Of a DNA stretch of 64,000 nt, positions 15,463-41,457 are shown piece after piece (positions within the stretch are counted from its first letter, which is position 1; the number at the start of each line of letters is the position of its first letter). Origin of the DNA: Patescibacteria group bacterium (GTDB lineage Bacteria > Patescibacteriota > Patescibacteriia > Veblenbacterales > UBA10138); the NCBI GenBank assembly GCA_018817715.1, contig JAHITT010000004.1, forward strand, positions 125,784 through 189,783, read 5' to 3'. The position numbers and the translations under genes are program-made. The notes under the pieces were generated by a model. The model searched no databases. It had not been told where the DNA came from and was given only the letters and a program-made list of their open reading frames with translations.

Positions 15463-16953
15463 TTATGTACATTTATCACTGCCAGCTGGTTTATCTTTAC
15501 CAGCCTGCCAGCGGGCTGTACCCCATTCAAAATGCCACCATTCACCACAATATCTAACCCAACCAACTTCTGACATAACTTGCTGTAATAAAGATATATC
15601 AGTCCAAACATCATTGGGTACTAAATTAATAGACGGCCGGGCAAAAGCCGAACTAATATAAGGACAACTTTGTCCTTGCAGACAAACATCCACTGCCCCG
15701 CCGGTTAAATGAGGTGCGGCACAACTAGGATAGGCCACAAAACTTCGAACCTTATCCGCACCATGTTTAGCTATACCTTCATTAAACAGTTTAGTTTGCG
15801 TAGCCAAACTTCGATGTGCTGAATTGATTTGTAAGGTTTTATTATATTGTGTTTTTAATATGTTTTGTACTTCCAATAATTTTTGATAAGCCTCCTTATT
15901 AAGCCTAGGGTCGCTGGCATAAACCGCGCCAAATTTTTTGGTTTCTATAGCTGTTAAATTATCTTCATTGGCGCATTTATTTTGATTGCTTGCCGCCGCA
16001 TCACTGTCTGAACCAGTTTTGGCTATAATAGTATCCTCTCTGGTAATTGTTTCCAATTTTAAATCCTTAAATTCAACCAAAGCCGGATTAATTAATTGCA
16101 GTAAAGAATAAGACATTAAAGCAATTACTAAACCAACAATAGCGCTAATAATAGTAGAATTGGCGTTTTTGATAGTTTCGGCGCTACCAGCCGCGGCAAT
16201 ACGTTTAAAACCGCCCCACATTATCATAACCACGGCTATAACAGCTATTAAACCAGTAAAAAATTTATAAAAATCCGCTATATATTGACCTAAAGTATTC
16301 CCTGTTACTACCACAGGTTTACCAGCAGTAAAAATCGTACCCGGTATAGTAACTTGCGGAACGAATTCTGTTGTTTTAGATTCTTGGCTTTGGTTTTGTG
16401 TAGTATTATAACTGTCAGCTGGCATCACACAACCTAATTGCAACACTACTCCATTATCACCATATATCTCTTGACAAGTAGATGGACTACAACAATTTAA
16501 ATTACTACAAGCCGCCCCAACTAGACCTAACAATCCCTCCCAAAGTGACGGAGATTTAAATTCTCCAGGACTTACACAATCAATATTAGTACTAACAGCT
16601 GTAGCATCCGGCACTGTTTCATTAAAAGTATTAAAACTAACACATTTATAAACTTTGGAACCCTGACCTATGTCTTTTTGGCAACAAGCTTTACCAGAGA
16701 TAGCTGAAATAGAACAACCATTACAGTCTACGGCATTAGCCGAACCATAACCACAAACATCTACACCAGCTTCATTTTTTTGACAAGCCGAGGTAACAGG
16801 TGAGCTAAAACCTAGTTCATAACCTTCTGCCTGACAAGCCTGAACAGCTTTAGAAGTCGGATCCGATTGAGCTAAAACAAAAGTCGGCCAAGCAACTAAC
16901 CAACTGACAATCAATAATAAATAAACAACTTTCTGTTTCATATTAATAACCAC
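15463..16953 (-). CDS. Secreted Cys-rich protein with an internal two-helix membrane hairpin (VirB2/TrbC-pilin-like) and a C-terminal LAS/M15 (VanY-type) peptidoglycan peptidase domain. It is a candidate T4SS-associated cell-wall hydrolase.
   Basis: It has a signal peptide and an N-terminal region with many Cys. The hairpin reads FYKFFTGLIAVIAVVMIMWGGFKRIAAAGSAETIKNANSTIISAIVGLVIALMSYSLLQLI. The C-terminal domain contains SAHRSLATQ...AYPSCAAPHLTGGAVDV, matching the SxHxxGxAxD motif of M15 peptidases. Confidence 0.6.
   Translation of the reverse strand: MVINMKQKVVYLLLIVSWLVAWPTFVLAQSDPTSKAVQACQAEGYELGFSSPVTSACQKNEAGVDVCGYGSANAVDCNGCSISAISGKACCQKDIGQGSKVYKCVSFNTFNETVPDATAVSTNIDCVSPGEFKSPSLWEGLLGLVGAACSNLNCCSPSTCQEIYGDNGVVLQLGCVMPADSYNTTQNQSQESKTTEFVPQVTIPGTIFTAGKPVVVTGNTLGQYIADFYKFFTGLIAVIAVVMIMWGGFKRIAAAGSAETIKNANSTIISAIVGLVIALMSYSLLQLINPALVEFKDLKLETITREDTIIAKTGSDSDAAASNQNKCANEDNLTAIETKKFGAVYASDPRLNKEAYQKLLEVQNILKTQYNKTLQINSAHRSLATQTKLFNEGIAKHGADKVRSFVAYPSCAAPHLTGGAVDVCLQGQSCPYISSAFARPSINLVPNDVWTDISLLQQVMSEVGWVRYCGEWWHFEWGTARWQAGKDKPAGSDKCT
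16096..16272. repeat. A ~177-bp segment nearly identical to 20092..20268. It is an intragenic duplication or gene-conversion tract encoding the shared membrane hairpin.
   Basis: Direct comparison by eye shows about 90% nucleotide identity (ttgcagtaaagaataagacattaaagc...ccgcggcaatacgtttaaaaccgccccacattatcataacca...). Confidence 0.7.
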
Positions 16954-17593
16954 TTAACAAATCATTTAGTTCCGTTTGTGTTAAAATGCCACTATGCACC
17001 CGACCATTAATTATATAATAAGGTGTACCATCTAAACCAACCGACCGACCTTCCATAATATTCCTTTGAATTAATGGCAAAGTTTCGTTATTACTCAAGC
17101 AAGTTAAAAATTTAGGCATATTTAATTTTAAATCATTAGCGATTGATTCATACACGAAATCACTTAAACTAGATTGATTTTGAAAAAGTTTATCATGATA
17201 ATCCCAAAATTTACCCTGCAGCGAGGCACACTGAGCCGCTTTAGCAGCCGGCAAAGACTGCTCGTGTTCGGCCAAAGGAAAATCTTTCCAAACTAAACTA
17301 ACTCTATCTTTATTTTGGGCAACCATCACAGACAATAAAACAGCCATTTGAGCACAATAAGGACAAGTAAAATCGCTAAACTGAACAATCGTTAGTTTGG
17401 CTCCATTTTTTACTCCTCTTACTGGGTCAGCTGGAAAAATAGTCACCTCACTAGGATTTTTAGGTTGAACTTTTTCTGTCGGCTGTTCCAAAACTGGATT
17501 AATTATTTTTGATTGCTCTTTTAAATTAAAAAAAATCACGACCAACAAAACCACCGCTAATAAACCAAACCAGAAAGAAATTTTTTTTAACAT
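16943..17593 (-). CDS. DsbA-family thiol:disulfide oxidoreductase, membrane-anchored.
   Basis: 216 aa with an N-terminal TM, the CxxC active site FSDFTCPYCAQM and a thioredoxin-fold length. Confidence 0.7.
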   Translation of the reverse strand: MLKKISFWFGLLAVVLLVVIFFNLKEQSKIINPVLEQPTEKVQPKNPSEVTIFPADPVRGVKNGAKLTIVQFSDFTCPYCAQMAVLLSVMVAQNKDRVSLVWKDFPLAEHEQSLPAAKAAQCASLQGKFWDYHDKLFQNQSSLSDFVYESIANDLKLNMPKFLTCLSNNETLPLIQRNIMEGRSVGLDGTPYYIINGRVHSGILTQTELNDLLSGY

Positions 17594-17644
17594 AAAATAT
17601 TAAAACTTAAATCCTAAATAAATCCCAAATCACAATTTCCAAAC

Positions 17645-17860
17645 TTACTTATCTTTTAACATCTCTTTGTTTTTAAGCTTAATTATTATGGAGTTAAAGA
17701 TTAAGTTTAATTCCTTAGCTTCTTGCCATAATTTGCGAGCTGACCTTATTAATTGACTTATAATCGGCTTAATAACGGTATTATTAGGTAAAGTTTTAAC
17801 AAACTTTATCACAGCTATACCAAAGGCAGCTGTCCTGTTTTCTAAATCATACCTTGGCAT
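17645..17860 (-). CDS. Fragment of a four-helix-bundle protein, possibly truncated or a pseudogene.
   Basis: 71 aa. The N-terminus YDLENRTAAFGIAVIKFVKTLP resembles the four-helix-bundle (23S rRNA-IVS-type) family, but the ORF is only about half the usual length. Confidence 0.3.
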   Translation of the reverse strand: MPRYDLENRTAAFGIAVIKFVKTLPNNTVIKPIISQLIRSARKLWQEAKELNLIFNSIIIKLKNKEMLKDK

Positions 17861-17964
17861 TTTGGGTATTATTTAAGATTTAGAAATTAGGATTTGAGAT
17901 TTTATTAAATTGTTAAACCCCTCCATAGGTTTATTTGTTAATATTTAACCTATTTAAAATAACA

Positions 17965-19200
17965 CTAATTGTTCAACTTAATACTTCTTAACTGTCTAGT
18001 AGCTGAATCCGTAAAATAAAGCCACTGACCATCTTTAGAAACAGTTACCTCACCGACACTCATTCCCTCACCCCGCTCGTTTACCGGACTAGCTAAAAGA
18101 ATGGCCGAACCTGTGCCCAAATCTACTCGCCAAATATTATCTGGCTGACCTGTGGCTAATTCTGGTACCAAACCGGCTCCCTGGGGCATTTCTTGTGGAG
18201 CTGTGCAATAAGCTGCTGAACCAGTCAAGGTACACCTATCGGCCCAAGTAGCAATATTTAACTGACGTTTATTGGTTCCCACATTATCCGTACTAGCGTT
18301 TACTAACCATAAAGCTGGTTTAAAATCCGTTTTATCACTATAAACAGAATATAATAATTTTTGACCATCGGGTGACCACTTAGAATTAAAACCTCGACCA
18401 TCTACATATAAACCCTTAAAATTTTCCTGATTAAAACCAATTAATAATACTTGCTGAGAAAAGGCTGTATTATCGGTACCGGTTCTCGATAAAGCCACCA
18501 CCTGATTATTGGGCGACCAAGCAACTTCTACCTTGCTGGCGTTTTCACCCATAGGTTCTATGCCAGTTAACCCGGATCCATCGCTGTTTATTTTTACCAC
18601 CCAACGATCATTAACGCTATCAGCCAAATATTTACCGGCGATTTGGCCACTATCTGGCGAAAAAGAAAATTCAGCCATTTCTTTAGGCAAGGTATATTGT
18701 TTTTTTGATTTAAAATCATACACAATATTAGCACCATCGGGAAATTCTAAAACAGCCTTATCGCTATCTTTAGACCAAGTAACATTTTGCACGCTACAAT
18801 AATCTGTTTGATTAATCACCCTTTTAACACCACTGGCATCTATTTCATAAAATTTACAATCCTGCGGATTATAATACCTAAGGCGCCCAGAAGCTGTGTC
18901 TGGTTTAACCACTGGATCAGTCGTAACCAAAGGTAAAGCTTCGGCACCCCCTTGATCCAAACCTGTTCCTGGCCCACCTGGAGTTACTGTATCGGCTCCA
19001 GGCAAAGTACCGGTACCAGGCTCGGTTGTTGTACCGCTACCCGGTCCAGTTATGGGAAAATTAGTTTGACCGCCTGGCGTAATAACCGATGGTTGAACTT
19101 TGGGCCGCCATAATAAATACAAAAACCAAACTATTAAACCAATAGCCACAACTATTAATACACCAATCCAAAATTTTTTACTTTTTAAAAATTGCCACAT
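17965..19200 (-). CDS. Membrane-anchored beta-propeller protein, TolB/PD40-like, with a Gly/Thr/Pro-rich linker.
   Basis: 411 aa. It has an N-terminal TM (FWIGVLIVVAIGLIVWFLYLLW) and a low-complexity PGGQTNFPITGPGSGTTTEPGTG linker. Repeated blade-like segments (WSPDG.., SPDSGQ.., WSPNN..) follow. Confidence 0.5.
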   Translation of the reverse strand: MWQFLKSKKFWIGVLIVVAIGLIVWFLYLLWRPKVQPSVITPGGQTNFPITGPGSGTTTEPGTGTLPGADTVTPGGPGTGLDQGGAEALPLVTTDPVVKPDTASGRLRYYNPQDCKFYEIDASGVKRVINQTDYCSVQNVTWSKDSDKAVLEFPDGANIVYDFKSKKQYTLPKEMAEFSFSPDSGQIAGKYLADSVNDRWVVKINSDGSGLTGIEPMGENASKVEVAWSPNNQVVALSRTGTDNTAFSQQVLLIGFNQENFKGLYVDGRGFNSKWSPDGQKLLYSVYSDKTDFKPALWLVNASTDNVGTNKRQLNIATWADRCTLTGSAAYCTAPQEMPQGAGLVPELATGQPDNIWRVDLGTGSAILLASPVNERGEGMSVGEVTVSKDGQWLYFTDSATRQLRSIKLNN

Positions 19201-19206
19201 AATATT

Positions 19207-20727
19207 TTATCTATCAGGAAATTCTGTGTCTGTAATATTTAAATCGCAAGCGATTGGTTGCATTTTACCATTACTATCAAACGGCTGGAATAATTTATCA
19301 GCACTAACCTTCGTATAATCAATATCATCCGCTAATAAATCTAAAGCACAAATCGGATAGCCACTATGCCAACGCGTTACACCTATCCCGTTATTGTCCA
19401 AAATTTTCTTACTTATAGTACCACAAGTTGAAGCATCTATAGCATACCAATCATCACAACCGTCCGATTCCCTTTCCACCAACAAAGCCAAACCCTTAAC
19501 CCCGCCCGCTGCTGCACAATGATTGGTATTCTTTAAAGTCAAACCACTCCAACAACCCGTCAAAGTATAATAACCATTATTTTCCACATCCATAGTATCA
19601 CTAATAGTACCATTCGGTTTCATCATGCCACAATCAAAACCTACTTTATCACCGTTATTGCAGATTAATAAAGCATCTAACCTGTTTACTTCTATACCCA
19701 CTAACTTACCCTTTAACATATAGCTACTGCAAGCATAAGGAAAACCCTCCCGAGAAGAATTTTTAAAACAACCCTGACCTGTTTCCTGACATTCCAAACC
19801 AGTACATTCACCAGTACTCAAAACCAATTTTTTACCACAACTGCTACTAGGGGAATTTTTGCCTTGCCGTTCCACACAGGTACCATTTTTTGTTTCACCA
19901 GCCGCTGGCTTACAATCTTCATCTTTAAAACAAGGTAGTCTATCAAATGAACCACCGACACATTCATAATAAGTGTACCCGGCATTATACAAAGATTTGG
20001 CTTCTTGGTATGCAGGGCAAAAACCAAATATTTCCGGCTTAACCATTTCTATGCCCGGCAAGGTATTTTTAACCAAAGCCGGGTTAACCAGTTGCAGTAA
20101 AGAATAAGACATTAAAGCGATTACTAAACCGACAATAGCACTAATAATAGTAGAATTGGCATTCTTTATGGTTTCAGCACTACCGGCCGCGGCAATACGT
20201 TTAAAACCGCCCCACATTATCATAACCACAGCAGCTACAGCCAAAAAACCAATAAAAAATTTATAAAAGGCTGCCAAATAACCAGGAAAACCACCAGTAA
20301 TCCCTGGTCGGCAAAAACCCAAACCTTTTTGCTGACAATCTTGATCAGTAGAACAAGAAGTTGGCTCCTCGCCTAAAGTATAACTGGAACAAAATTTTTC
20401 ACTAACTCCCGGTATACCTACTTGTAAGGGTATAGAGGGGCTGGGGGCAAAACAACGAGCCGTGGCCTGACCGCCAACTTCATCACAATTTTGACAACTG
20501 ATATTAGTCGGATTAGCGGCACAACCACCCGGCAAAACAGAAGGATCTTTTTCCCATAAGCCTTTGCCCTCTTTACAATTATCTTCAAACCAACAACGTT
20601 GCTGAACAAAATCTCCAGCCGCCGCTTTGGCGCTATAACTAAAAATAAAAAATAAAACCAAACTAAAAAAGAAAAATAATAATACTTTTGATGGCTTTAT
20701 TAAAAAAAATCTTTGTAAAATAATCAT
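19207..20727 (-). CDS. Secreted Cys-rich protein with the same VirB2/TrbC-pilin-like two-helix hairpin as 15463..16953. It is a paralogue without the peptidase domain.
   Basis: It has a signal peptide (start chosen at the MIILQRFF ATG) and more than 40 Cys. The hairpin FYKFFIGFLAVAAVVMIMWGGFKRIAAAGSAETIKNANSTIISAIVGLVIALMSYSLLQLV is almost identical to the module in the 15463..16953 protein. Confidence 0.5.
   Translation of the reverse strand: MIILQRFFLIKPSKVLLFFFFSLVLFFIFSYSAKAAAGDFVQQRCWFEDNCKEGKGLWEKDPSVLPGGCAANPTNISCQNCDEVGGQATARCFAPSPSIPLQVGIPGVSEKFCSSYTLGEEPTSCSTDQDCQQKGLGFCRPGITGGFPGYLAAFYKFFIGFLAVAAVVMIMWGGFKRIAAAGSAETIKNANSTIISAIVGLVIALMSYSLLQLVNPALVKNTLPGIEMVKPEIFGFCPAYQEAKSLYNAGYTYYECVGGSFDRLPCFKDEDCKPAAGETKNGTCVERQGKNSPSSSCGKKLVLSTGECTGLECQETGQGCFKNSSREGFPYACSSYMLKGKLVGIEVNRLDALLICNNGDKVGFDCGMMKPNGTISDTMDVENNGYYTLTGCWSGLTLKNTNHCAAAGGVKGLALLVERESDGCDDWYAIDASTCGTISKKILDNNGIGVTRWHSGYPICALDLLADDIDYTKVSADKLFQPFDSNGKMQPIACDLNITDTEFPDR
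20092..20268. repeat. Second copy of the ~177-bp near-identical segment (see 16096..16272).
   Basis: About 90% nucleotide identity to 16096..16272 over the hairpin-coding region. Confidence 0.7.
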
Positions 20728-20737
20728 AAAATAAAAA

Positions 20738-30258: not shown

Positions 30259-30284
30259 AACGCCACTTAAGTGGCGTTATTTTT
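30259..30284 (-). terminator. Terminator-like hairpin just after the stop of the giant gene.
   Basis: aacgccac-ttaa-gtggcgtt forms an 8-bp perfect stem with T/A-rich flanks on both sides. Confidence 0.4.
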
Positions 30285-33300: not shown

Positions 33301-36300
33301 ACGACTAGGCTCACTAGAACAAACCCCACGAGGCGCTAAGGGTGCTACCTGAGCATTATCTTGGCTACGACTTTGTTCATAAGTTAAAGGAGCAGACCAA
33401 GCTAAATCGCCACCCAGTGACAAATCGGTTACTAACAAACAACCATCTTTTTCACCAACTTTACCACCGCAAGTGGAACGATCCAATTTACCATTATCCA
33501 AATAATAATAAGTCCGGTTGGTTAAAGTATTGTCCTGGAAAGCTTTGCAAGACGAAGCTTCAGCTGGACAAGTATAAGCATAAGGCACAGCCAAAAACTC
33601 CTTAGCTTGATCATTAGTTAAACTATTAGGCAATTCTAATAAACGAACATCATCCACATAAACAGTGCTAGTTTGACGTAAACTACCTTCGTTAGTTATT
33701 AAACCAACTGATAAGGTATCAATATTAGGCTTAGTTTTTATAATATAAGTTCGATTGAGCCAAACTCCTTTAGGATCAGTGACTACAATTGTTGGATTAC
33801 CAGCCACCATCTCATAATGATGACAAGTACCCCCACCGCAACCCGTACCGACTTTGGGATAAGCGTGCCTAGACAAAGACCAACTACCCTGCAGAACTTC
33901 TTCCTTGGGTAAATAAATTTGAGCGGAAACTAAGAATAATCTTTCTTGGTTTTTAGGTTCCACTGTCACATGGGAGGACCAAACGCCAGAATATTGCTGA
34001 TCTGAAGTGGCTTTAACCTTAAGCAAACTACCACCCCAATATTGACCGTTTAAGGATCCTTGAGCGTATAACTGACCCTTACCATCTTCTTGACCGGCGC
34101 CATTTCTTTCCCAGCCGACAAAATAATCTTGAGTATTATCGTTTATTTGACCAGAACCCTTCAGGCCACTTATACCGGCAAAATTTTCAAAACTACCATT
34201 AATCAAAAGATTACAAGGCTCGGTTGTGCCAGTCTTGTACCAATCATAAGATTGGCCAGCCCGAAGTTGTTTATATTCACAAGTTCTAGAACCAGGATCT
34301 TTAAAATAATAAGTACTATTACCAGCTTTATATTCCTGACAACGATCTTGTTCTTTAGAACAAAGAGGTGAAGTTGGTCCAGCGGCAAAATTATCCGGAT
34401 CTAAACGCATAAATTTATCTGACCAACCCTGCAAAAATCCAGCAGCCGTAAAACTCGGTTCACCCAATCTTTGGCAAGATTGCATTTGTGCCGAACACTG
34501 TTTAGTCCGATCATAAATACGGTAAACCACCTGATCTTTAGCTGTGGTGACAGTCTGCCCGCCTACGGTAACTGTTTGCAATTGAGGACTTAGAGAATTT
34601 TTAGTGTCGACCAAAGCTTCACAACCAACAGCTTCTTGACGGCACAATTTAGAAAAACCAGTAAAAGAATAGGCTCGATTCTGCCTATCTTTATAAGATC
34701 GGCAACCTAAATATTTTAATTGATCGCCGTTAGGCTGACAGCTTGTCGGCGTAGTCCAAGAATCTTTTTTCAAAAAGAACCGGTCACCAACTTCTTGCAC
34801 AGCAATATTATCAGCCACAAATCTTACACCGGCCGCGGCCAATTGCACCCTGACACCTTGGCTAATATTGGCACTGGTTGGTAAAGTAACTGGTCCAATA
34901 GTATAAAGTTGCCAATCATTAGTTAGTTCGGAAGCTGGTAAATTAAAATTAATAGTTGCTTGAGGATTCAAACTGGATTCGGCCGCACTAACATAATTAA
35001 CTGTATAAGTTAAAGATCCGTTGTCAGTCAAAATACCATTAACTGGTCCACAATCATTACCAATACAAGTCTGGCTACCACCGGGATTAGCTTCTACGGA
35101 ATAAACTGTGGCACCACTAGTGCCTACTGGATTACCTGAACGCCAAATAAAATTAAAATCTCCTGATGGCTGATTGGAACGTATTACTAAACCAGTTATG
35201 GGAATATTACTACCAGCCGTATTGTTATTTAAACTGTAAGCTCCACCACCAGCCACTGGCTGACCATTCAAAGTCATTTTTAAATAAACCGTGCCTTGGT
35301 TGGTGACCACAGGATCACCCGACCCAGTGCCAGGGGGGGTAGTAGGTGTACGTGGGGTACTAACAACAGTTGTTAAACCTTTGGATTCACCACCACTATT
35401 ATAAGCCCTAACCTGATAAACAAACCGACCATCCAAACTTAAACCTTTGTTTTGACCATCAACAGGATCTACTCCTAAATCCGGAAAACTAACCGCGCCG
35501 GCATTGGGCAATACTTGAATAAGTTTAACGGCCCGACCATTATCGCCCCGATAAACAGTAAAACCAGTTTCATTATCACTACTATCTTGCCAATTTAAAG
35601 TAGCCTTATATTGACCGCTAGGACAATCGCCCGAACAAATCGCTAAACTGGCGGTTAAACCAGTAGGCGCAATTGGTAATTGAATATTTTTATTAGAACC
35701 AACATCTTTAGGTAAAGAAAAGAAACCAGTGCCAGAACCCGCCTGGGCAACAAAAGTATCTACTAAAAAGTAAGAAAATTTACCCCCATCACTAATTGTT
35801 TGACCAGCCAAATTTTTAGCCGTTACTCGCCAAGCATAAGTACGGCCTGGCTCTAAACCGATAAAATCACTTGCTGCTAACCCAGCCACGGGCAAACTTA
35901 AAGTAAATCTATCAACATCATTTTTTCGGCCAATTTCTTGCCAACCATCAGCTAAAGTTGATTTATCGTCATAGTGCATCAATTGAACATCATACTTATC
36001 AGCATAATTGGCCCGCTGCCAAGTCAAAACCGGATTATTAGTATTCACTTTAGCGTAATTGTCCTGACTGCCGTGCGGATCTACCGTAGCAAAAGCCTGC
36101 GGTGGCACCTGAGTAATAAATTCAATAGCTCTTTCCGTTGGCGTGCCAGCGCTATTGTAAGCCACCACCCTAATTTTAGTAGCCTGACCTAATTTAATTG
36201 CTCCAACATTAACCGGCATAGTCAATTCCGTTTTGGCTAAAGCGCGCCAAATAACTGGCGTGCCATAAGGTTGTTCAATAATTACTAAATAATTAACAGC

Positions 36301-39300
36301 GTCGCTGGAAGCTCCCCAAGCAACAGTAAAGGGTAAGGGCATGCTCTTTTTTTCGTCCTCAGGTGTGGTTGGATCATCGGCTGGTGAATAAATATCAAAC
36401 GGTTTAGCAGCCAAAGAACCGGTAGTAAAAGTAATAGTTTTTTCTTCTGTTTTAGAACTATCATTTTTAGCTATTACCCTAACTGTATAATTAGTATTGG
36501 CTGATAAAATATTACCAGGTACAGTAAAACTGGTAGCTGTAGTTGTAGTACTATAAGCTGTACCACCAGTTATAGAAATATCATACTTGTTAGCCCGTAA
36601 AGAACTCGTCCATTGAATAGTTGGGCTTAAAACCTGATTACTAGAACCGTCGACCGGTACTGTAATATTAAATTTACCTGGTGGGTTATTTACTTGAACT
36701 GGCGCCTGCCGATTAACAGTCGTTGTACCATTATAAACTACTGTTAAATCATAAGTTTTAGAAATCGGTAAAGTATAACCATCGCTAAAACTTTGCGTGG
36801 GTAAATTAACATTAATGGTACCTGATTTGGGTCCAGTGGGAGCTGACTGACAAACCGGTGTCTTATCTATACAATCATCTTTAACACCACAAACCTGACC
36901 AGACTTAAAACCAGAATCACATTTACTAACAGTGGATAAACATTGGGCACTAGGATAACGACAGTCGCTATCCAAAGAACAAATTTTGGTATTTTCGTTA
37001 GAACAAATCTTTTTAGTTGCTTGACAAAGAGCCGTAGTACTACGACAAGGAGTAGTATCGGTTCCTACGCAAGCAATGGCATTATTATTGGAACACTTAT
37101 TATCCACACAGGTGGCGGTGGTATTCCGACAGTCACTATTACCATTAGCTATATTACAAGCGCTATCGTTATAAGGCCCACCTACACATTTATAATCAAC
37201 AGAATTACAAGTAGCTGTGGGTTGCTGACAAAAATTATTGTCTGTCGGCGAACAAGTTTTATTTATATTTAAACCGCTAGTACATTTAAAATCCTGCGGC
37301 ACACAAGCCGGCGTTAAATCACGACAAGCATCATTATTAGTACAAGGATTATCGGTCTTAGAACCGGCATAAAAACAACGACTGTCGGCCTTAAAAGAAG
37401 TACTTAAAACACCAGGAATATTAACAGTAATAGCGTCCGTGGCTGTAGTGGAGGCTGACCAGCTTAAATTGGTAGAAAAAGCATTAGCAAAACCAGTATT
37501 ATCAAAAACCGACGGACTAGCCTGCAAAGCTACGGTGGCGGTTTGAGCAATGGCTTCGCTAATAAAAGTCCAATTGCCAAATAAATTTTGCCAAGCTAAT
37601 TTATTGGCCTTAATTAAAGAATTAACCAATTGGTTAGACCAGCTAACTTTAGCCGGCAAGTTGGTTGTTAAAGTAACTGCCGGAACTTGACTGCTAGTCT
37701 CCGCCAAACCCAAACTGCTTTTTTTGGCCCAAACAGACACTAAATACTGTTGGCCTAAAACTGCCGAACCAACGACATCTTTATAAATTGCTCCATCCGT
37801 ACCCGAATCATAGGAATGTCCAAAAGCTGAAGTAGACTCGTTAGATGGCGTACCTGAATACCAGCCACTAGAAGGTGCTGCATCATAAGTTACACGAGCT
37901 GTGGAATCCTTATCGCCAAAAGTAGATAAAGGAAAAACTAATTTTACACTATTAGCATTAGGGCCTTTATACTCACGGCAACCATTATATTGCACAGAAC
38001 ATTTTTTACCCTCCTGTGGTATAGCTCGATAATAACAAGCGTTATTTTCCCAATTACCCCCTGTGGCTAAACAATCAACTTGATTGCCTTCGGTTTTTCG
38101 ATAACGTGTACAACTACTGGAAGCGGTAACTGTTTTAGAAGCCAAACGATAATAAACCTGGCCATCAGAAGCGTATAATTGTTTACAATCTGGATTACTG
38201 GTTGGCCAACTACCACTTAACCGACAATCTCCTGAATTATCCGTAGTTACTGGGCCGGTGGCCTCGAATTTTAATTGCCAAGCCTTAAGTTGATAACCAG
38301 TTAAATCTGAACCAACCCAAGTATAATATGTCCTATCACCCTCCCCCGGCTGAACACACTGCCTAAGTTCGGTAAAATATTCTTTTTGTTCACCTAAACC
38401 AACATTAGTAAACTCACTACAACCCACCGCCTCAGCCGGACAAGTTTGAGCAGTTTTTGTTATAAAATATTTAACTGATTTATCTGACGGATTAAGCTTG
38501 GTTGGCTGTTGTTCATAAGCCTGATAACCCACGCACTCCCCCGGACAAGTATAATCCGGATGCGGTTGACCGGGCACGGCCGGTGTGCCATCCAACGGTG
38601 TATAAAGCTCACAACCAACTTCACCAGCCGCACACCAACCTATATATTTAGCACACTCTGGGGAATCATTTTTTAAATCATTGTCATAACACTTTAAATA
38701 ATCGGGCGCCTGTTTTAAATAAACTTCAGCTGTTGTGGCATAGGTTGAATAATCCTGACCTGACTGACTTGTCACCTGATTAACCACTTTTTCCACCGGA
38801 TTAGCCCCGGCAGCAGTTAAACTAGTTGAAATATTACTTAAACGAAGTAAAGCCGTACAACCTTCGTCATTAGACGAACAAGAATAACGATCTATATTCT
38901 TGGCATACAAACGACTATTTAAATCATACCGGCCTAAAGAAGTATCCAAAGAATTAAAAGCCGTGGAATACCACTTACAACCAGTTGCACCAGTACAATT
39001 ACCATCATTAAAACTGGCTAAAGAATTAGTTAAGTAAGAAGCCGAACCGCCACCGCTAGAAGAAAAAGTTTGGCAAGAAGCAAAAGGCGCCTGACCAGAA
39101 TCCCTGGGGAATTCACAACTGTCGCCACCTAAACGCCAAACATTTTTTTCTTTAGTACAATAACCCCAAGAAGCGCAAGTTCCATCAGGATTTTCCACCA
39201 CACAGTTCTGCGTATCCACACAAATATCCTGACGATTAGAACCCTGTTGTTCCAATATTTGCCCGGAGCCTTGCAAACGACACTGGGCCAAAGGGGCTTT

Positions 39301-40731
39301 AATAATCCAATTAGGATCTATTAAATGATAATAAGGGTTGGTTTGATTAACGTCGTTATTTAAATAAGGTTGGCCAAAATTAGATAAGACTTCATTCAAG
39401 GTAACACCCCGTGAGCCAACTTTTTGCGTAGCCAATTCCCAACCCAAAGGCAAAATCCTGGCCAAACGTAATTTTTTAATATCTGAAAGATACCAAGCAT
39501 CCGGTGTTCTAATATTACGCGGCCTGTCCAATTTAAACACCCAATTACCATTAAGCAATCCAGCGTCCACGGCTTCCTGAACCGTTACTGCTTTACCTTC
39601 TTGAGCCTGACGTAAGGCTCTTTCGAACTTGGAATCAATTGTACAATTATTAAGCGCTGCATAATCCTGATTTTGTGGACAATTGGAAAATTCACTTATG
39701 ACATCAATTGCTTCACCACCAACTATCTGCGGCATAGCAATTAAAGTATTAATTTTTGTGGCGTAATCAGTACCGCTACCGAATTCAGCGGCAAAAATTG
39801 AACCCTTACCAATAGAAGCCGGATTAGGTATTTCTCCTTCCATTAATCTTTTTAATAAACGGGCGGCTAAGGTATTAGTAAAAGTTCCCAAAGCATCAGC
39901 CATAATATCGCCAGTAAACACTAAAGGCTCGGCCAAAGCTTGCTGAAACGACCAGTCCTTAGTATTAGCCACACTACGAGCCGGTGTTTTAATAAAACCA
40001 GTAATAGATTGAACTATATCTTTGTAACCCTGATTAGATGTTTGCTCTAATTTAGCCAGTTCTTTTTTAGTATTAACATCTTTAATTAAATTTTGCTGAA
40101 TATTTAAGGATACACCCAAATCATGTTGCTTGGGATCTAAAGAAACTTTAAAATTCTTTAAAAAATTCTTACGCTCTATTGGATCATTCAAAGCTTTGTC
40201 CCAATTATTTCTTAATTGGCTTAAGGTACACTTAGGTACTGGCGGTTTTTGCTCTTGAAAAGCTGTTAAGCCAATAATTAACTTAACCGAAGGAGCGCCC
40301 GGGCCACTTGGCTGACAAACATTAAAATTACCCCAGGCGTCGCCACTGGTTATACCATCTAAAAAATCTCCCGCCGCCGCATCACCAGCATCCTTAACTG
40401 ATTGCCCTAAATTTTTCCAAGTAAAAAGCGGAGTTTGACCAGTACCACCCGAAGCCAACATTACAGCCGCATCATAAGCTATTTTTTGCGTAAAAGTCCG
40501 GGCAGCATTCCTAAAACCAATAGCTGCCCCATGTTCCAAAGTCCAACTAACAGCTGACTGAACCTTTTCCCAAATAAAATTAGCTAATTTTATTGGGGCA
40601 CCCAAAATATCTGATACTGGAATCGCCTGAGCAGGCCGAGCTGTTAAGGTAAAACCTCCCAACAAAACAAAAATTATGGCAAAAATTGTTGCTATTTTTT
40701 TGAGTGTTTCCCAAAGGGAGTGTTTAAACAT
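30304..40731 (-). CDS. Giant secreted multidomain surface protein (3475 aa) with a signal peptide, FN3-like modules, EGF-like Cys-rich repeats and beta-rich domains. It is a candidate adhesin or tip/cargo of the T4SS-like system.
   Basis: The ORF is uninterrupted for 10.4 kb and begins with a signal peptide (...LTARPAQA|IPV). FN3-like repeats containing YxVxVxAxN are encoded at about nt 35900-36800. A Cys-rich module with spacings of the CxxxxC..C type is encoded at about nt 36850-37400. Cys is abundant throughout. Confidence 0.8.
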   Translation of the reverse strand: MFKHSLWETLKKIATIFAIIFVLLGGFTLTARPAQAIPVSDILGAPIKLANFIWEKVQSAVSWTLEHGAAIGFRNAARTFTQKIAYDAAVMLASGGTGQTPLFTWKNLGQSVKDAGDAAAGDFLDGITSGDAWGNFNVCQPSGPGAPSVKLIIGLTAFQEQKPPVPKCTLSQLRNNWDKALNDPIERKNFLKNFKVSLDPKQHDLGVSLNIQQNLIKDVNTKKELAKLEQTSNQGYKDIVQSITGFIKTPARSVANTKDWSFQQALAEPLVFTGDIMADALGTFTNTLAARLLKRLMEGEIPNPASIGKGSIFAAEFGSGTDYATKINTLIAMPQIVGGEAIDVISEFSNCPQNQDYAALNNCTIDSKFERALRQAQEGKAVTVQEAVDAGLLNGNWVFKLDRPRNIRTPDAWYLSDIKKLRLARILPLGWELATQKVGSRGVTLNEVLSNFGQPYLNNDVNQTNPYYHLIDPNWIIKAPLAQCRLQGSGQILEQQGSNRQDICVDTQNCVVENPDGTCASWGYCTKEKNVWRLGGDSCEFPRDSGQAPFASCQTFSSSGGGSASYLTNSLASFNDGNCTGATGCKWYSTAFNSLDTSLGRYDLNSRLYAKNIDRYSCSSNDEGCTALLRLSNISTSLTAAGANPVEKVVNQVTSQSGQDYSTYATTAEVYLKQAPDYLKCYDNDLKNDSPECAKYIGWCAAGEVGCELYTPLDGTPAVPGQPHPDYTCPGECVGYQAYEQQPTKLNPSDKSVKYFITKTAQTCPAEAVGCSEFTNVGLGEQKEYFTELRQCVQPGEGDRTYYTWVGSDLTGYQLKAWQLKFEATGPVTTDNSGDCRLSGSWPTSNPDCKQLYASDGQVYYRLASKTVTASSSCTRYRKTEGNQVDCLATGGNWENNACYYRAIPQEGKKCSVQYNGCREYKGPNANSVKLVFPLSTFGDKDSTARVTYDAAPSSGWYSGTPSNESTSAFGHSYDSGTDGAIYKDVVGSAVLGQQYLVSVWAKKSSLGLAETSSQVPAVTLTTNLPAKVSWSNQLVNSLIKANKLAWQNLFGNWTFISEAIAQTATVALQASPSVFDNTGFANAFSTNLSWSASTTATDAITVNIPGVLSTSFKADSRCFYAGSKTDNPCTNNDACRDLTPACVPQDFKCTSGLNINKTCSPTDNNFCQQPTATCNSVDYKCVGGPYNDSACNIANGNSDCRNTTATCVDNKCSNNNAIACVGTDTTPCRSTTALCQATKKICSNENTKICSLDSDCRYPSAQCLSTVSKCDSGFKSGQVCGVKDDCIDKTPVCQSAPTGPKSGTINVNLPTQSFSDGYTLPISKTYDLTVVYNGTTTVNRQAPVQVNNPPGKFNITVPVDGSSNQVLSPTIQWTSSLRANKYDISITGGTAYSTTTTATSFTVPGNILSANTNYTVRVIAKNDSSKTEEKTITFTTGSLAAKPFDIYSPADDPTTPEDEKKSMPLPFTVAWGASSDAVNYLVIIEQPYGTPVIWRALAKTELTMPVNVGAIKLGQATKIRVVAYNSAGTPTERAIEFITQVPPQAFATVDPHGSQDNYAKVNTNNPVLTWQRANYADKYDVQLMHYDDKSTLADGWQEIGRKNDVDRFTLSLPVAGLAASDFIGLEPGRTYAWRVTAKNLAGQTISDGGKFSYFLVDTFVAQAGSGTGFFSLPKDVGSNKNIQLPIAPTGLTASLAICSGDCPSGQYKATLNWQDSSDNETGFTVYRGDNGRAVKLIQVLPNAGAVSFPDLGVDPVDGQNKGLSLDGRFVYQVRAYNSGGESKGLTTVVSTPRTPTTPPGTGSGDPVVTNQGTVYLKMTLNGQPVAGGGAYSLNNNTAGSNIPITGLVIRSNQPSGDFNFIWRSGNPVGTSGATVYSVEANPGGSQTCIGNDCGPVNGILTDNGSLTYTVNYVSAAESSLNPQATINFNLPASELTNDWQLYTIGPVTLPTSANISQGVRVQLAAAGVRFVADNIAVQEVGDRFFLKKDSWTTPTSCQPNGDQLKYLGCRSYKDRQNRAYSFTGFSKLCRQEAVGCEALVDTKNSLSPQLQTVTVGGQTVTTAKDQVVYRIYDRTKQCSAQMQSCQRLGEPSFTAAGFLQGWSDKFMRLDPDNFAAGPTSPLCSKEQDRCQEYKAGNSTYYFKDPGSRTCEYKQLRAGQSYDWYKTGTTEPCNLLINGSFENFAGISGLKGSGQINDNTQDYFVGWERNGAGQEDGKGQLYAQGSLNGQYWGGSLLKVKATSDQQYSGVWSSHVTVEPKNQERLFLVSAQIYLPKEEVLQGSWSLSRHAYPKVGTGCGGGTCHHYEMVAGNPTIVVTDPKGVWLNRTYIIKTKPNIDTLSVGLITNEGSLRQTSTVYVDDVRLLELPNSLTNDQAKEFLAVPYAYTCPAEASSCKAFQDNTLTNRTYYYLDNGKLDRSTCGGKVGEKDGCLLVTDLSLGGDLAWSAPLTYEQSRSQDNAQVAPLAPRGVCSSEPSRSCQKTADCLGDNVYCSFTQGQQPSANTILKVQRDRVCAEWLSCQTSTTITDSAGKPRELCYSLGRCNQASSGNAAGGCGNWLEPQSEQHPLDEADYIGRNTTWAGQDYTGYSIPGLCSLDAINSSSACAVSLASTKACRLYPEPDAPFPANVATWNSESKEAKLMSRAPGYKDANVCQPSTDPDENCECAYQRAVYKNGETRFYNYRSQPTDPINPVGEVCAGSLSGSEPCLEAKQEQSALKQITFAQGLKGYCLEKDSARKINNGADDACLTWLPIDVVQGEVSIYDDRPKAGFVSPGNQAMYYCAAARGLAQTTSKQSQLYYLDNPQPITFLPENARSVQGVPLAPSDVVTGPTTDCLYSPNASTAWDGKDKVCPNVGGQSFSLFGLTGIFSPAKTGQPFAPLIISGKVDYEMSFALSLGGLEKQLGGLDAIESIEIEGHFRKYGQTDSNNKRSRLIVSRYKLSDQVNRYSCDSDGKGLCSMTAVFNPNDPDKYLTLRINDKDPGGAADFYIVLKYTLREWCDVVAQVVSSNPNDVINNKAQTNRVNELSNYVVPQVGYTYATAGSKANHYLNAPFGAFVPSSTTFEYTGHLGPELEPTRVIPVAQYQPLISNEIQPYAPGVYGCSGAGGGSCSGWMCLAGVPDKDNPNITINKDKSLCDPAATGENRFCGYYDPTVHCDSSTGQPCPTQKTPFMCTGTSPALSLPTSSIGGVNLIKNLFVKFYNTFNWDTATAKYKALPKDPITFTIPIFNIPITLPGGSFDLSNQTIPGVVEPQAPVIAGVSFDAKGKTMGQDAGAKVTVSYSGTSHTSEDIMGQSPLPITLSFYGYNPNGNQMPIRFVGVDWGINGALGKSRNIEVEASLRNHKPICQSPKVCIGTPTPCTTDKQCASGKTCLNNPAFNFGDSPEACVADQDNQVGYFFYTTTYTCSGKNNLNWDSTLQACVYKPGVALRDNWGWWAKDNGQYEDKLPSINTGFNWSARADYYPKRIIVKPKN

Positions 40732-40743
40732 GGTTTAATTTAA

Positions 40744-41457
40744 TTAAAAACCAAATAACTGTTTAACCGTAGCCTGCAAAGTAGTGTCATCTATTATATC
40801 TAATTCCTTAGCATCGGCGCCGCCAGCTATTAAAAACTGCCTTAATTCAGCACCGGACATTTTTTGTAAAAGCTCTTTTTCTTGATCCGTTAACTGAAGA
40901 CTGGTATCTAAAGCTCCGGCTGACCCTGTAGTTGCTTTATTTTCACCAGCCACTTGCTGATAAATATTAATTAATGTTTGGTCATTATATTTAGCCAACA
41001 TTTCATCAGTGGCGCCGTTATTCTTAAGCATTTGCCTAATTTCCTCGGGACTGGGCGCTGCTTCAACATCATAACCAGCGGTTTCTGATTGGCTAACTGG
41101 AGCCACAAATTTTAAACAATCCTGACCTTGAGGACAATTAGGATCACTACCATTATCCACTTCCGCTTTGTCATCTAAACCATCTGAATCAGTATCTTTT
41201 AAATAAAGACTAGTCCGGTAAAAATTTATTTCCTCATAATCAGACAAACCATCACCATCCGTATCACTAGCCCGTAAAACCGTTTCATTAGCTACTGTCA
41301 TTTGACTATCGTCATTGTAAATTTTGGGTGCAAAGGGCAATTTTATTGAATTACTAATCTGCCAAACTCCGAAAACTACTGCCAATAAAGCTATGGTGGC
41401 CAAACCCCAATTATGCCCAGTCGGCCCGTTTATTTCGGAAATATCTTGCTCGGCCAT
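40744..41457 (-). CDS. Membrane-anchored protein with calcium-binding DxDxDG repeats (thrombospondin type-3-like).
   Basis: 237 aa with an N-terminal TM and the repeats DTDGDGLSDYEE and DTDSDGLDDKAE. Only 12 nt separate it from the giant gene. Confidence 0.45.
   Translation of the reverse strand: MAEQDISEINGPTGHNWGLATIALLAVVFGVWQISNSIKLPFAPKIYNDDSQMTVANETVLRASDTDGDGLSDYEEINFYRTSLYLKDTDSDGLDDKAEVDNGSDPNCPQGQDCLKFVAPVSQSETAGYDVEAAPSPEEIRQMLKNNGATDEMLAKYNDQTLINIYQQVAGENKATTGSAGALDTSLQLTDQEKELLQKMSGAELRQFLIAGGADAKELDIIDDTTLQATVKQLFGF

Follow-up and report, generated by a model that had tools for sequence, protein, structure and literature searches.

A probably non-conjugative chromosomal T4SS locus of Patescibacteria type, with a giant Cys-rich secreted protein

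The apparatus locus occupies positions 15463–41457 of the window (i.e., the whole 64-kb stretch of DNA that was analysed) on the minus strand, and every ORF that the sequence-only reading had assigned to this strand was recovered in place. Its features, listed in the direction of transcription, are the following:

41536–41564, minus strand: promoter-like site TTGACA-17-TATAAT with TG (12/12 consensus match only), in the gap between KsgA and TSP3, upstream of the TSP3 gene
40744–41457, minus strand: TSP3 Ca-binding anchor, 237 aa (Pfam TSP3_bac, 7.6e-9)
30304–40731, minus strand: giant secreted protein, 3475 aa (signal peptide ending in AQA; 116 Cys)
30255–30282, minus strand: terminator-like hairpin, 12-bp stem with a T-rich tail behind it (pattern match only)
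26861–29989, minus strand: extended VirB6/TrbL-like protein, 1042 aa (TM segments; orthologs match PF04610 TrbL)
24987–26846, minus strand: soluble charged protein, 619 aa (between VirB6 and PrgI in every case)
24538–24981, minus strand: PrgI/VirB3-like two-TM protein, 147 aa (Pfam PrgI, 2.5e-8)
23842–24531, minus strand: TrsD/TraC-like protein, a split VirB4 N-domain, 229 aa (NCBIfam VirB4_plasma, TrsD, CD1110)
21929–23803, minus strand: VirB4-family ATPase, 624 aa (P-loop_TraG; NCBIfam conju_CD1110)
21272–21853, minus strand: VirB8-like bitopic protein, 193 aa (TM 5–29, NTF2-like domain 70–193)
20738–21115, minus strand: two-TM protein with a Q/E-rich N-terminus, 125 aa (TM segments, translation)
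19207–20778, minus strand: Cys-rich pilin-fusion protein, 523 aa as listed (T4SS_pilin, 3.9e-6)
17965–19200, minus strand: membrane-anchored PD40/TolB-like beta-propeller, 411 aa (Pfam PD40, 2.3e-7)
17645–17860, minus strand: truncated 23S_rRNA_IVP gene remnant, 71 aa (intact homologs match PF05635)
16943–17593, minus strand: membrane-anchored DsbA-like thiol-disulfide oxidoreductase, 216 aa (Thioredoxin_4, 9.5e-24)
15463–16953, minus strand: Cys-rich pilin-fusion protein with a C-terminal M15 (VanY/LAS) peptidase, 496 aa (T4SS_pilin, 1.4e-9)
14101–15453, minus strand: RadA/Sms, a conserved neighbour 9 nt downstream of the cluster

The sequence-only reading had described 15 co-directional genes running from 41457 to 15463 with gaps of mostly 5–15 nt. 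The genes are indeed co-directional, but the count comes to 13 genes associated with the apparatus, with an unrelated remnant in addition, and the minus-strand run extends past both ends, to RadA on one side and to KsgA–MFS–TsaC–LeuRS on the other. Most of the gene order holds as well, except for the 3′ end, which reads 523-aa pilin fusion, propeller, (IVP remnant), DsbA and pilin–M15 fusion. The short gaps are found at most junctions, the exceptions being the giant–virB6 gap of 314 nt, the propeller–DsbA gap of 371 nt (with the IVP remnant inside it) and three further junctions of 38, 75 and 156 nt. The remnant, which does not belong to the apparatus, derives from a four-helix-bundle family whose intact homologs match PF05635 at 7e-17 to 3e-13. 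The flanks are made of housekeeping genes (RadA, RecG, KsgA, LeuRS), of which RadA is possibly co-transcribed with the cluster. As for the 314-nt gap, it contains both the terminator-like hairpin, starting 22 nt past the giant stop codon, and an extended −10 element (TGGTATAAT, at about 30100, upstream of virB6; pattern match only). Judging from this hairpin and the promoter-like sites, the giant gene appears to form its own transcription unit in the window.

To place the locus among its relatives, the 80 best related loci were kept, with one genome per species, mostly from ABY1-class Patescibacteria. Across these, VirB4 identity is 70–94%; VirB4 is also better conserved than the adjacent RadA in the same loci (e.g., 81% vs. 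57% in L004), and a recurring order is observed: giant–VirB6–619–PrgI–229–VirB4–193–pilin–propeller–DsbA–pilinM15–RadA, RadA following the cluster in 31–32 loci. Such identity combined with the same gene order points to a vertically inherited core machine and not to an ICE. Hence, the synteny among the 80 related loci and the housekeeping flanks answer the question of the sequence-only reading (conserved core machine or ICE) in favour of the former. Its report of no relaxase or coupling protein also holds across the 64-kb window, the coupling-protein part being valid for those 64 kb only. No ICE integrase was found in the window either, nor any flanking direct (att-like) repeats; the sole tyrosine recombinase is Xer-like and 14 kb distant, on the far side of LeuRS, PNPase and S15. 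GC content varies between 0.32 and 0.43 along the window (somewhat higher, at 0.40–0.43, across most of the giant gene), with no marked composition break.

The profile matches of the proteins lie well outside chance expectation. The ATPase belongs to the VirB4 family, with matches to P-loop_TraG (5.5e-29) and, above the family cutoff, to NCBIfam conju_CD1110 (3.7e-106; 356 bits vs. a cutoff of 325), and its translation carries the three motifs reported earlier: GAGKS (Walker A), DPEMEY and DEAW (Walker B, VIDEAW). Having passed this cutoff, it was rejected as an FtsK or HerA protein. The 229-aa protein, found in 78 of the 80 loci at a median identity of 55%, matches VirB4_plasma (positions 92–232, 7.3e-9), TrsD (2e-5) and CD1110 (positions 6–76), while its orthologs bear PF26593 (TraC-like); from these matches, it is a TrsD/TraC-like VirB4 N-terminal domain that has been split off. 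PrgI exceeds the Pfam gathering score (34.8 bits vs. a cutoff of 27) and is present in 75 loci out of 80. The VirB6-like protein begins with a signal-like segment and about seven TM helices within its first 330 aa, followed by a K/E-rich, Cys-poor tail of some 700 aa that we infer to be cytoplasmic. The window protein has no Pfam match, but PF04610 (TrbL) is matched by 4 of 24 orthologous N-domains (best 3.8e-6; orthologs of 744–1570 aa), so that its proposed VirB6 identity is supported by transitive homology. The possibly VirB8-like protein gains support from its fold: a TM helix (5–29), a disordered linker and an NTF2-like domain (70–193). PrgI/VirB3, the extended VirB6 and this VirB8-fold protein constitute the membrane translocon. 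Detected by tblastn in 73/80 loci, the 619-aa protein has no Pfam, NCBIfam or PDB match, its conserved stretches in alignment being aa ~330–360 and the C-terminal ~120 aa. The 125-aa protein is poorly conserved, with a detectable homolog in only 4–5 loci.

Both Cys-rich proteins score above the PF18895 (T4SS_pilin) gathering threshold, in agreement with the VirB2/TrbC-pilin-like hairpins noticed earlier. In the 523-aa protein, which also matches the Mbov_0395 pilin-like family (1e-6) and whose true start is likely an internal Met at about 20727, a signal peptide and a Cys-rich ectodomain precede the VirB2-type hairpin (aa 170–236), itself followed by a 290-aa Cys-rich ectodomain. The 496-aa protein has a signal peptide, a Cys-rich ectodomain, the hairpin (aa 227–293) and an M15 domain (VanY, 4e-7; Peptidase_M15, 6.9e-5; vanXY, 3e-10) with intact Zn and catalytic motifs (SAHRS, PHLTGGAVD, EWWH). 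Both ectodomains of each protein should face outward. In many genomes, the hairpins are more identical to each other (0.85–1.0) than to their best match in another genome, and the flanking domains are unrelated; this homogenisation would count in favour of hairpin co-assembly. Alternatively, the hairpins of these ~500-aa proteins may serve only as membrane anchors, rather than form polymers like the 7-kDa VirB2. Cysteines make up 3.3–5.4% of the secreted parts (116 in the giant, 28 in the 523-aa protein and 20), for 0–2 in each cytoplasmic or translocon protein. The DsbA and the beta-propeller of the sequence-only reading were both recovered: the former (DSBA, 1.2e-16, in addition to Thioredoxin_4) has a CPYC active site and occurs in ~30 loci, and the latter is anchored by a TM helix (4–35), its position being kept in 35–37 loci.

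These two proteins, along with the Ca-binding TSP3 anchor and the 3475-aa Cys-rich protein, complete the extracytoplasmic set. The TSP3 protein combines one N-terminal TM helix (16–38) with DxDxDG repeats, as expected for the predicted Ca-binding anchor, and its gene lies directly upstream of the giant homolog in all seven loci that show the 5′ end of the latter. The giant, correctly recognised as secreted, consists of a conserved N module (aa 1–1000), a lineage-variable insert (aa ~1000–1940; Cys-knot repeats and an Fn3 array, with CBM_4_9 in homologs) and a conserved C module (aa 1940–3475), the conserved modules having no Pfam domain match. Its family numbers 1431 representative clusters, of which 1117 reach E ≤ 1e-30. 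The typical length is 2400–3700 aa, and the members whose names were looked up are either "hypothetical" or nameless.

Taken together, the CD1110-type VirB4, the PrgI, the pilin, the TrbL-matching orthologs and the split N-domain uphold the Gram-positive-type (MPF-FATA-like) T4SS, since the tests proposed for it all came out in favour. We compared the locus with MPF-FATA systems of Firmicutes and Tenericutes (C. difficile CTn-type CD1110, pCF10 Prg/Pcf, pGO1 Trs and Mycoplasma ICE Mbov_0395/0397). Like them, it has PrgI and lacks an outer-membrane core (VirB7, VirB9, VirB10); its VirB4 falls within the C. difficile family, its split N-domain recalls the pGO1 subclass, its VirB8-fold protein resembles PrgL, TcpC and TraM, and its hairpin matches the Mycoplasma family. 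In contrast, relaxase, T4CP, oriT and integrase are missing from its surroundings, its chromosomal position is fixed among the relatives retrieved (i.e., it is not mobile), its hydrolase is an M15 peptidase rather than a lytic transglycosylase/CHAP, its hairpins are fused to large Cys-rich ectodomains, and there is no PrgB-type LPXTG adhesin.

The resemblance is closer to the T4SS that Wang et al. 2023 (PMC10633639), the phylum-wide survey of Quinonero-Coronel et al. 2025 (PMC12102498) and a 2025 FEMS review (PMC12857230) have already published for Patescibacteria. As in these systems, a TrsD-like gene and PrgI come before VirB4, VirB6 is extended to about 1000 aa, an NTF2/VirB8-like protein is present, PF18895 VirB2-like pilins occur in a monoderm, and the cluster includes a cell-wall hydrolase. 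The T4SS of Ca. Southlakia epibionticum ML1 (SEML1_0006–0019) is likewise chromosomal, with no adjacent relaxase or T4CP, and is essential to this Saccharibacteria member's growth as an epibiont (PMC10633639). It features six small (~130-aa) pilins in an array and a lysozyme, whereas the window has hairpins inside 496- and 523-aa Cys-rich proteins and a fused M15 peptidase; the ABY1 locus further adds DsbA, the PD40 propeller, the TSP3 anchor and the ~3000-aa protein. The survey describes a distinct, chromosomal VirB4 clade without relaxase, in which ABY1 loci are associated with comF, recG and radA (PMC12102498); the window similarly lies beside radA and recG, near ksgA. According to it, many Patescibacteria genomes also carry VirD4-like genes, for the most part at a long distance from virB4, and a T4CP could be encoded elsewhere in the genome. 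With a probability of roughly 85%, we take the locus for a chromosomal T4SS of Patescibacteria type and not for a conjugative element. This core finding is real but already published, down to the missing relaxase, the pilins of VirB2 type and the link of ABY1 loci to radA and recG.

Whether the giant protein is part of the machine is less straightforward. In many relatives, a long Cys-rich ORF stops 0–17 nt ahead of VirB6, which implies an operon-like arrangement, and TSP3–giant–VirB6…VirB4 is found in L083, L084, L087, L088 and L089. Yet KsgA, MFS and TsaC are equally syntenic, so that synteny alone is weak evidence. Moreover, in the window a terminator-like hairpin and promoter-like sites set the giant gene apart from virB6, and one relative (L086) has KsgA–TSP3–giant with no T4SS within 10 kb downstream. 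TSP3 and the giant might thus constitute an independent surface-adhesin unit adjoining the T4SS through frozen gene order. We consider this doubtful in view of the close spacing in relatives, of an adjacency kept even at about 30% giant-protein identity, and of the Cys-rich, DsbA-dependent chemistry common to the giant and the hairpin proteins.

Regarding transport, an effector or protein translocator acting into or onto the host, subverting the host cell, has been speculated for Saccharibacteria (PMC10633639, PMC11665869), and T4CP-less effector systems are known (Ptl and Brucella VirB; PMC12102498). As cargo, one could think of the giant, of the hairpin fusions or of effectors unlinked to the locus. 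The cluster does encode an M15 peptidase and large secreted proteins, but the giant and the hairpin proteins bear classical Sec-type signal peptides, and hence can exit the cytoplasm without the T4SS. With no recognisable effector, toxin or chaperone gene in the cluster and no T4CP within 64 kb, this role looks rather unlikely.

A more specific version of uptake would be a DNA importer of the Helicobacter ComB type, with RadA, RecG and ComF processing imported DNA for recombination or salvage. H. pylori ComB and archaeal Ced are T4SS-derived DNA importers without relaxase, ComB also being devoid of VirD4; the locus is T4SS-derived too, with no relaxase in the window. Its VirB2-, VirB3-, VirB4-, VirB6- and VirB8-type parts and its lack of a T4CP are those of ComB, and its VirB4 weakly matches CedB and CedD. 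DNA-processing genes are linked to the locus as well: RadA on the same strand, RecG adjoining, ComF (Pribosyltran) directly after the VirB8-like gene in L087 and L089, in line with the published ABY1 linkage. However, the ComF family was not detected in the window, unrelated housekeeping genes show conserved order too, the VirB7, VirB9 and VirB10 of ComB, a diderm MPF-T system, are all absent here, and Ced is archaeal with other membrane parts. Furthermore, Southlakia deleted for comEC is no longer transformable yet stays viable, whereas its T4SS is essential (PMC10633639, PMC12857230); comEC-dependent competence being separable from T4SS essentiality, a classical-transformation role is unlikely in Saccharibacteria, and we regard a ComB-type function here as unlikely.

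Finally, a conjugative element or its decaying remnant, with relaxase, T4CP and integrase beyond the window, would agree with a VirB4 of the family known from clostridial conjugative transposons (CD1110), the Mycoplasma ICE-like hairpins and the relaxases of a few Patescibacteria (PMC12102498), but it is extremely improbable given a locus whose housekeeping surroundings stay the same across dozens of species-level genomes, a VirB4 more conserved than RadA, the absence of att-like repeats and of a marked composition break, a single, distant Xer-like recombinase and ORFs that are all intact.

What appears undescribed is the conserved partnership of the T4SS with a giant Cys-rich surface-protein family, which together with TSP3 forms a unit usually found right beside VirB6, as well as the fusion of pilin hairpins, homogenised within a genome, into such large proteins. 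Concerning the former, for which novelty had been claimed, no description is found in the searched main text of the survey, nor where Wang et al. 2023 and the FEMS review treat the T4SS, and in these texts DsbA, the PD40 propeller, the TSP3 anchor and the ~3000-aa protein go unmentioned; the names Thioredoxin_4, PD40, TSP3_bac, VanY and DSBA are likewise absent from two supplementary files of the survey.

For the organism, our preferred reading is that monoderm (MPF-FATA) conjugation machinery would have been repurposed for the episymbiont–host interface. The Cys-rich ectodomains would be oxidised by DsbA, and VirB6/VirB4 would be the base on which the hairpin proteins form a short, decorated filament or collar, whose M15 domain may open peptidoglycan, either its own or that of the host. 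The TSP3-anchored giant would bind the host surface through its swappable CBM/Fn3/Cys-knot middle module, and VirB4 would power the passage of macromolecules through the contact. An uptake role has been proposed before (PMC11665869), and a RNA-feeding Patescibacterium displays tubular structures that may be T4SS pili (10.64898/2026.06.21.733656). A role in adhesion only is distinctly improbable, and the apparatus is most likely a host-contact conduit, probably for uptake, with host nucleic acid or other building blocks as the leading, if tentative, candidates for what it would take up.

Between 15463 and 41457, the minus strand carries a typical ABY1 member of the already known Patescibacteria T4SS. 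The translations showed the ORFs of the cluster to lie where the sequence-only reading had placed them, but the 15 genes it had counted amount to 13 apparatus-associated genes and an unrelated 71-aa 23S_rRNA_IVP remnant. Moreover, its gene order had to be corrected at the 3′ end, from the 523-aa hairpin protein onward, and among its gaps of mostly 5–15 nt there is one of 314 nt, between the genes for the giant protein and VirB6. In their order on the minus strand, the genes are:

40744-41457 (-): 237-aa protein with TSP3 Ca-binding repeats behind one TM helix (profile match and TM prediction), hereafter the TSP3 anchor
30304-40731 (-): 3475-aa secreted Cys-rich protein, hereafter the giant
next gene (-): 1042-aa putative VirB6
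24987-26846 (-): 619-aa charged protein
next gene (-): 147-aa PrgI/VirB3
23842-24531 (-): 229-aa TrsD/TraC-like protein
next gene (-): 624-aa VirB4 ATPase
21272-21853 (-): 193-aa predicted VirB8-like protein
next gene (-): 125-aa 2-TM protein, no family assigned
19207-20778 (-): 523-aa hairpin-fusion protein
next gene (-): 411-aa anchored PD40 propeller (Pfam)
17645-17860 (-): 71-aa remnant
next gene (-): 216-aa DsbA-type thioredoxin with CPYC (profile match and translation)
15463-16953 (-): 496-aa hairpin-fusion protein with an M15 domain

The remnant is a truncated gene of the four-helix-bundle 23S_rRNA_IVP family, intact copies of which (119–136 aa) occur in related loci, in L004 likewise between the propeller and DsbA genes and in L018 in other places within the cluster; in appearance it is a small selfish or filler gene, not a part of the apparatus.

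The Gram-positive-type (MPF-FATA-like) identity proposed for the system holds, through profile matches for VirB4, PrgI and the pilins, orthologs for VirB6 and the fold for VirB8. The 624-aa ATPase matches the NCBIfam profile “VirB4-like conjugal transfer ATPase, CD1110 family” (conju_CD1110; 3.7e-106, 356 bits for a curated cutoff of 325), as well as Pfam P-loop_TraG (5.5e-29), AAA_10 and DUF87, and its translation contains GAGKS (Walker A), DPEMEY and VIDEAW (Walker B); passing the VirB4 family cutoff rules out an FtsK/HerA identity, which had been raised as an alternative. This ATPase spans positions 150–729 of the CD1110 profile. The 229-aa protein, which has no similarity to it in BLASTP, matches the N-terminal part of VirB4 profiles (VirB4_plasma positions 92–232, 7.3e-9; CD1110 positions 6–76), and its orthologs carry Pfam PF26593 “TraC-like”. 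VirB4 is therefore split in two genes, as in the TrsD/TrsE arrangement of pGO1. The match of the 229-aa protein to TrsD (2e-5) is below the NCBIfam full-length cutoff, and its family profile returned only noise from PDB sequences. Two genes upstream of virB4, the PrgI/VirB3 protein has two TM helices and reaches 34.8 bits for a Pfam PrgI cutoff of 27.

In the first 330 aa of the 1042-aa protein, a signal-like segment is accompanied by about 7 TM helices; behind them comes a charged tail of ~700 aa with hardly any Cys. The protein itself has no Pfam match, while 4 of 24 orthologs (N-domains 30–58% identical) match PF04610 TrbL/VirB6 (best 3.8e-6), which makes it a putative “extended VirB6” by transitive homology only; a profile search of PDB sequences with the N-domain gave nothing but noise. 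The 193-aa protein, earlier flagged as possibly VirB8-like, has no sequence-level match (neither in Pfam nor with its family profile against PDB sequences, which yielded noise) and recovers only 3 matches when used alone as a homolog-search query. Its AlphaFold2 model (14 homologs) shows a TM helix that a disordered linker joins to an NTF2-like domain modelled with confidence, so that the suggestion is borne out by fold and the protein is predicted to be bitopic and VirB8-like, with the NTF2-like domain on the extracytoplasmic side. The window thereby supplies a clear VirB8-fold protein in a phylum where sequence-profile searches detect VirB8 only sporadically. Finally, a scan restricted to one genome per GTDB species returned 443 VirB4 relatives, the best 80 of which were used for comparisons: the 619-aa soluble protein is conserved in 73 of these 80 loci, most strongly over its last ~120 aa. 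Pfam scans of 26 members of its family gave no match, and phmmer searches of PDB with this protein and with the giant returned nothing useful.

Because the locus fits the published ABY1 description point for point, the central claim of the sequence-only reading is correct but not new. According to Wang et al. 2023 (PMC10633639), the Saccharibacterium Southlakia epibionticum cannot grow epibiotically without its T4SS cluster, which is similar to Gram-positive conjugative systems, has no recognisable coupling protein or relaxase, and unusually encodes essential pilins. In the survey of Quinonero-Coronel et al. 2025 (PMC12102498), most VirB4 form a distinct clade sister to MPF-FATA, and genes for TrsD, PrgI, VirB6 and VirB2-like (PF18895) proteins cluster with virB4. 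VirB8 homologs are reported as rare and as hardly occurring outside ABY1; relaxases are nearly absent, T4CP homologs are common and mostly distant from virB4, and comF, recG and radA are typical members of the ABY1 loci, where ksgA often lies near virB4. These points recur in a 2025 FEMS review (PMC12857230). A 2024 perspective (PMC11665869), in which the function is called “completely unknown”, suggests the uptake of nucleotides. A 2026 preprint (10.64898/2026.06.21.733656) reports tubular structures, maybe T4SS pili, in a Patescibacterium that feeds on RNA, and connects PNPase with VirB4 as traits of ancient origin in RNA-feeding Patescibacteria. In the window, PNPase is encoded at 51578-53809 (-), 10 kb from the T4SS.

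The suggestion that the cluster is a core machine is upheld by its housekeeping flanks and by the recurrent gene order in relatives. The remainder of the window encodes housekeeping functions (phosphoglucomutase, SHMT, FolD, RecG, RadA, KsgA, TsaC, LeuRS, PNPase and S15), along with a PilT-like ATPase, glycosyltransferases and five tRNAs, and an Rfam scan of the window found tRNAs only. RadA, RecG and KsgA flank the cluster, and relatives show an equal context, in agreement with PMC12102498. In the best 80 of the 443 relatives, which are mostly Patescibacteria MAGs, many of them ABY1-type (Kerfeld-, Veblen-, Falkow-, Magasanik-, Uhr-, Buchanan- and Komeilibacteria), VirB4 is 70–94% identical and is more conserved than the adjacent RadA in shared loci (e.g., 81% vs. 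57% in L004). The order giant (C-terminus)–VirB6–619–PrgI–229–VirB4–193–(125)–pilin–propeller–DsbA–pilin-M15–RadA recurs with few local inversions. Conserved order and VirB4 conservation are together the signature of a vertically inherited core machine, and the cluster thus appears to be one, under strong constraint. An ICE or plasmid identity is opposed by this stable order and context and by the lack of relaxase, T4CP and att repeats in the window. Indeed, family searches uphold the earlier statement that the 64 kb hold no relaxase or coupling protein: no relaxase family matched the window ORFs of at least 100 aa or the 71-aa ORF within the cluster, the only trace of a T4CP (VirD4 or TcpA) in the 64 kb is a T4SS-DNA_transf match (0.099) inside VirB4 itself, and the unassigned window ORFs include no ComF, relaxase or T4CP. 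No att-like direct repeats were found around the cluster, and there is no marked composition break (GC 0.32–0.43 along the window, and somewhat higher, at 0.40–0.43, over most of the giant gene). The only tyrosine recombinase in the window is Xer-like and lies 14 kb from the cluster, behind essential genes.

This Xer-like recombinase (55045-55923 (+), 292 aa; best matches XerA, XerD, XerC), directly upstream of tRNA-Arg (55986-56058), probably serves in chromosome dimer resolution; it is no ICE integrase. Elsewhere in the window, a 195-aa protein (8597-9184 (-)) matches the Translin family (PF01997, 1.9e-10), and two overlapping opposite-strand ORFs (10168-10839 (+) and 10261-11022 (-)), neither with a family match, lie just upstream of RecG. 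The listed start of a cupin-domain ORF (57577-58110 (+)) overlaps tRNA-His (57563-57636), its true start being probably further downstream. A DF family (seleno)protein (62163-62546 (+); NCBIfam 6.4e-20) is followed by the PilT-like T2SSE ATPase (62589-63626 (+)); no other gene of type IV pilus type was seen in the window.

The PF18895 VirB2-like pilin is a hallmark of the Patescibacteria-type T4SS, and the window has two, both in large fusions. T4SS_pilin matches of 27.3 and 38.3 bits (gathering score 26.6) were obtained in the two Cys-rich proteins, in which the hairpins are atypically embedded (523 and 496 aa, respectively). The M15 peptidase announced for one of them is confirmed by a VanY/M15 match in the 496-aa protein, with the LAS-enzyme motifs SAHRS, PHLTGGAVD and EWWH intact. 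Across 43 related loci, 62 hairpin-bearing ORFs measure 297–705 aa, with 7–30 Cys and the hairpin internal, in contrast to the ~130-aa pilins of Southlakia. Over 66 aa, the hairpins of the window share 92% identity (75% in BLASTP over a longer 91-aa stretch), and their coding segments (16072-16284 and 20068-20280) form a 213-nt direct repeat with a DNA identity of about 85–86%, whereas outside the hairpin the two proteins are unrelated. Within many genomes, the hairpins are more alike (identity 0.85–1.0) than in the best comparison between genomes (0.53–0.80), which indicates homogenisation or a shared assembly constraint and suggests concerted evolution of the hairpins between unrelated flanking ectodomains. 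Any gene conversion in the window is not very recent, since 14 of 61 identical codons differ synonymously. Under the positive-inside rule (KR in the loop), both domains flanking the hairpin would face outward, which agrees with their Cys content and with the DsbA of the cluster. A LysM and M23 peptidase gene lies on the opposite strand (47312-48535 (+)), 6 kb from the cluster; LysM/M23 domains occur in some VirB1-like Patescibacteria proteins, according to PMC12102498.

The residual novelty is the giant/TSP3 unit and the hairpin-fusion architecture, for which we found no description in the available parts of PMC12102498, PMC10633639 or PMC12857230. Besides a Sec-type signal peptide, the giant contains 116 Cys (3.3%); a variable middle (aa ~1000–1940) with Cys-knot repeats and Fn3 separates its conserved N module (aa 1–1000) from a C module that is conserved too. 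HMMER, run exhaustively with aa 1–1020, gathered 1431 representative clusters (1117 at E ≤ 1e-30), whose members are mostly 2400–3700 aa long, those name-checked being “hypothetical” or nameless. Giant homologs carry CBM_4_9 in the variable region, one such domain being the sole match in a Pfam scan of three of them. The C-terminal 896 aa gave no matches as a homolog-search query, and no fold could be assigned to the N-terminus, owing to a poor AF2 model of the first 650 aa (pLDDT 56, only aa ~340–490 confident) without a Foldseek match in PDB at E < 1.

The TSP3 anchor gene directly precedes the giant gene in all seven loci with a visible 5′ end, the T4SS operon directly follows the giant gene in five related loci (L083, L084, L087, L088, L089), and a long Cys-rich ORF ends 0–17 nt before virB6 in many genome loci. 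Against such a linkage, KsgA, MFS and TsaC are as syntenic as the giant unit. Moreover, a further locus, L086, shows that this unit is separable from the T4SS operon: KsgA and a TSP3-like gene precede its giant homolog (10001-18730, 2909 aa), and downstream of this homolog lie radical-SAM and other genes in place of a T4SS. In the window, a site upstream of the TSP3 gene (41536-41564 (-)) matches the sigma-70 consensus at 12/12 positions and has a TG extension, a strong terminator-like hairpin with a 12-bp stem (30255-30282 (-)) immediately follows the giant gene in the giant/virB6 gap, and, after it, an extended -10 element (TGGTATAAT, at ~30100) stands upstream of virB6. This suggests two transcription units, TSP3–giant being apparently separate from the virB6 side.

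From these components, whose identities and conservation are observed, we infer a mechanism in which VirB4, TrsD, PrgI, VirB6 and VirB8 would form the membrane translocon, DsbA would oxidise the secreted parts, and the hairpin proteins would build up, on the translocon, a decorated filament or collar, the M15 domain of which would take a VirB1-like wall-opening role; the TSP3-anchored giant would contact the host via its variable cassette, and VirB4 would drive macromolecule passage. As for the direction of transport, we favour uptake: neither a T4CP nor a relaxase lies nearby, the link to RadA, RecG and ComF is conserved, ComB and Ced set a precedent, and the literature describes the phylum as poor in biosynthetic capacity. 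The comparison with ComB-type systems involves a core without T4CP or relaxase and adjacent RadA and RecG, with ComF found in relatives (behind the VirB8-like gene in L087 and L089) and none in the window; the diderm VirB7, VirB9 and VirB10 of ComB are absent here. Instead of uptake, the apparatus may export effectors, or its role may be purely adhesive.

A bolder proposal, to which we give about three chances in ten, is that the ABY1 T4SS builds no simple pilus but a composite, disulfide-locked host-contact organelle made of hairpin fusions, a TSP3-anchored giant and a swappable cassette. The hairpin fusions, whose hairpins gene conversion would keep near-identical inside a genome, would form a decorated conduit with its own M15 wall-cutting enzyme, the TSP3-anchored ~3000-aa protein, from an unannotated family of more than 1,400 clusters, would be the conserved host-binding or penetrating element, and the swappable CBM/Fn3/Cys-knot cassette would set host specificity.

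In the single species where this was tested, the Patescibacteria T4SS proved essential, and the system is a leading candidate for the means by which these ultra-small bacteria draw nucleic acids and building blocks from the hosts they live on. The window adds no new kind of system to this picture; it gives a clean and complete ABY1-type parts list, with a VirB8-fold protein, a split VirB4, hairpins fused to large ectodomains and a strongly conserved giant partner. The giant/TSP3 unit and the hairpin-fusion architecture merit systematic co-occurrence and structural study and, if the giant and the hairpin fusions are real structural parts, they would be concrete targets for cryo-ET, host-range prediction and the genetics of cultivated CPR–host pairs. 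Were the composite organelle to prove true, the giant family would count as a T4SS component that had so far gone unrecognised, and it would determine host range in a large part of the CPR.
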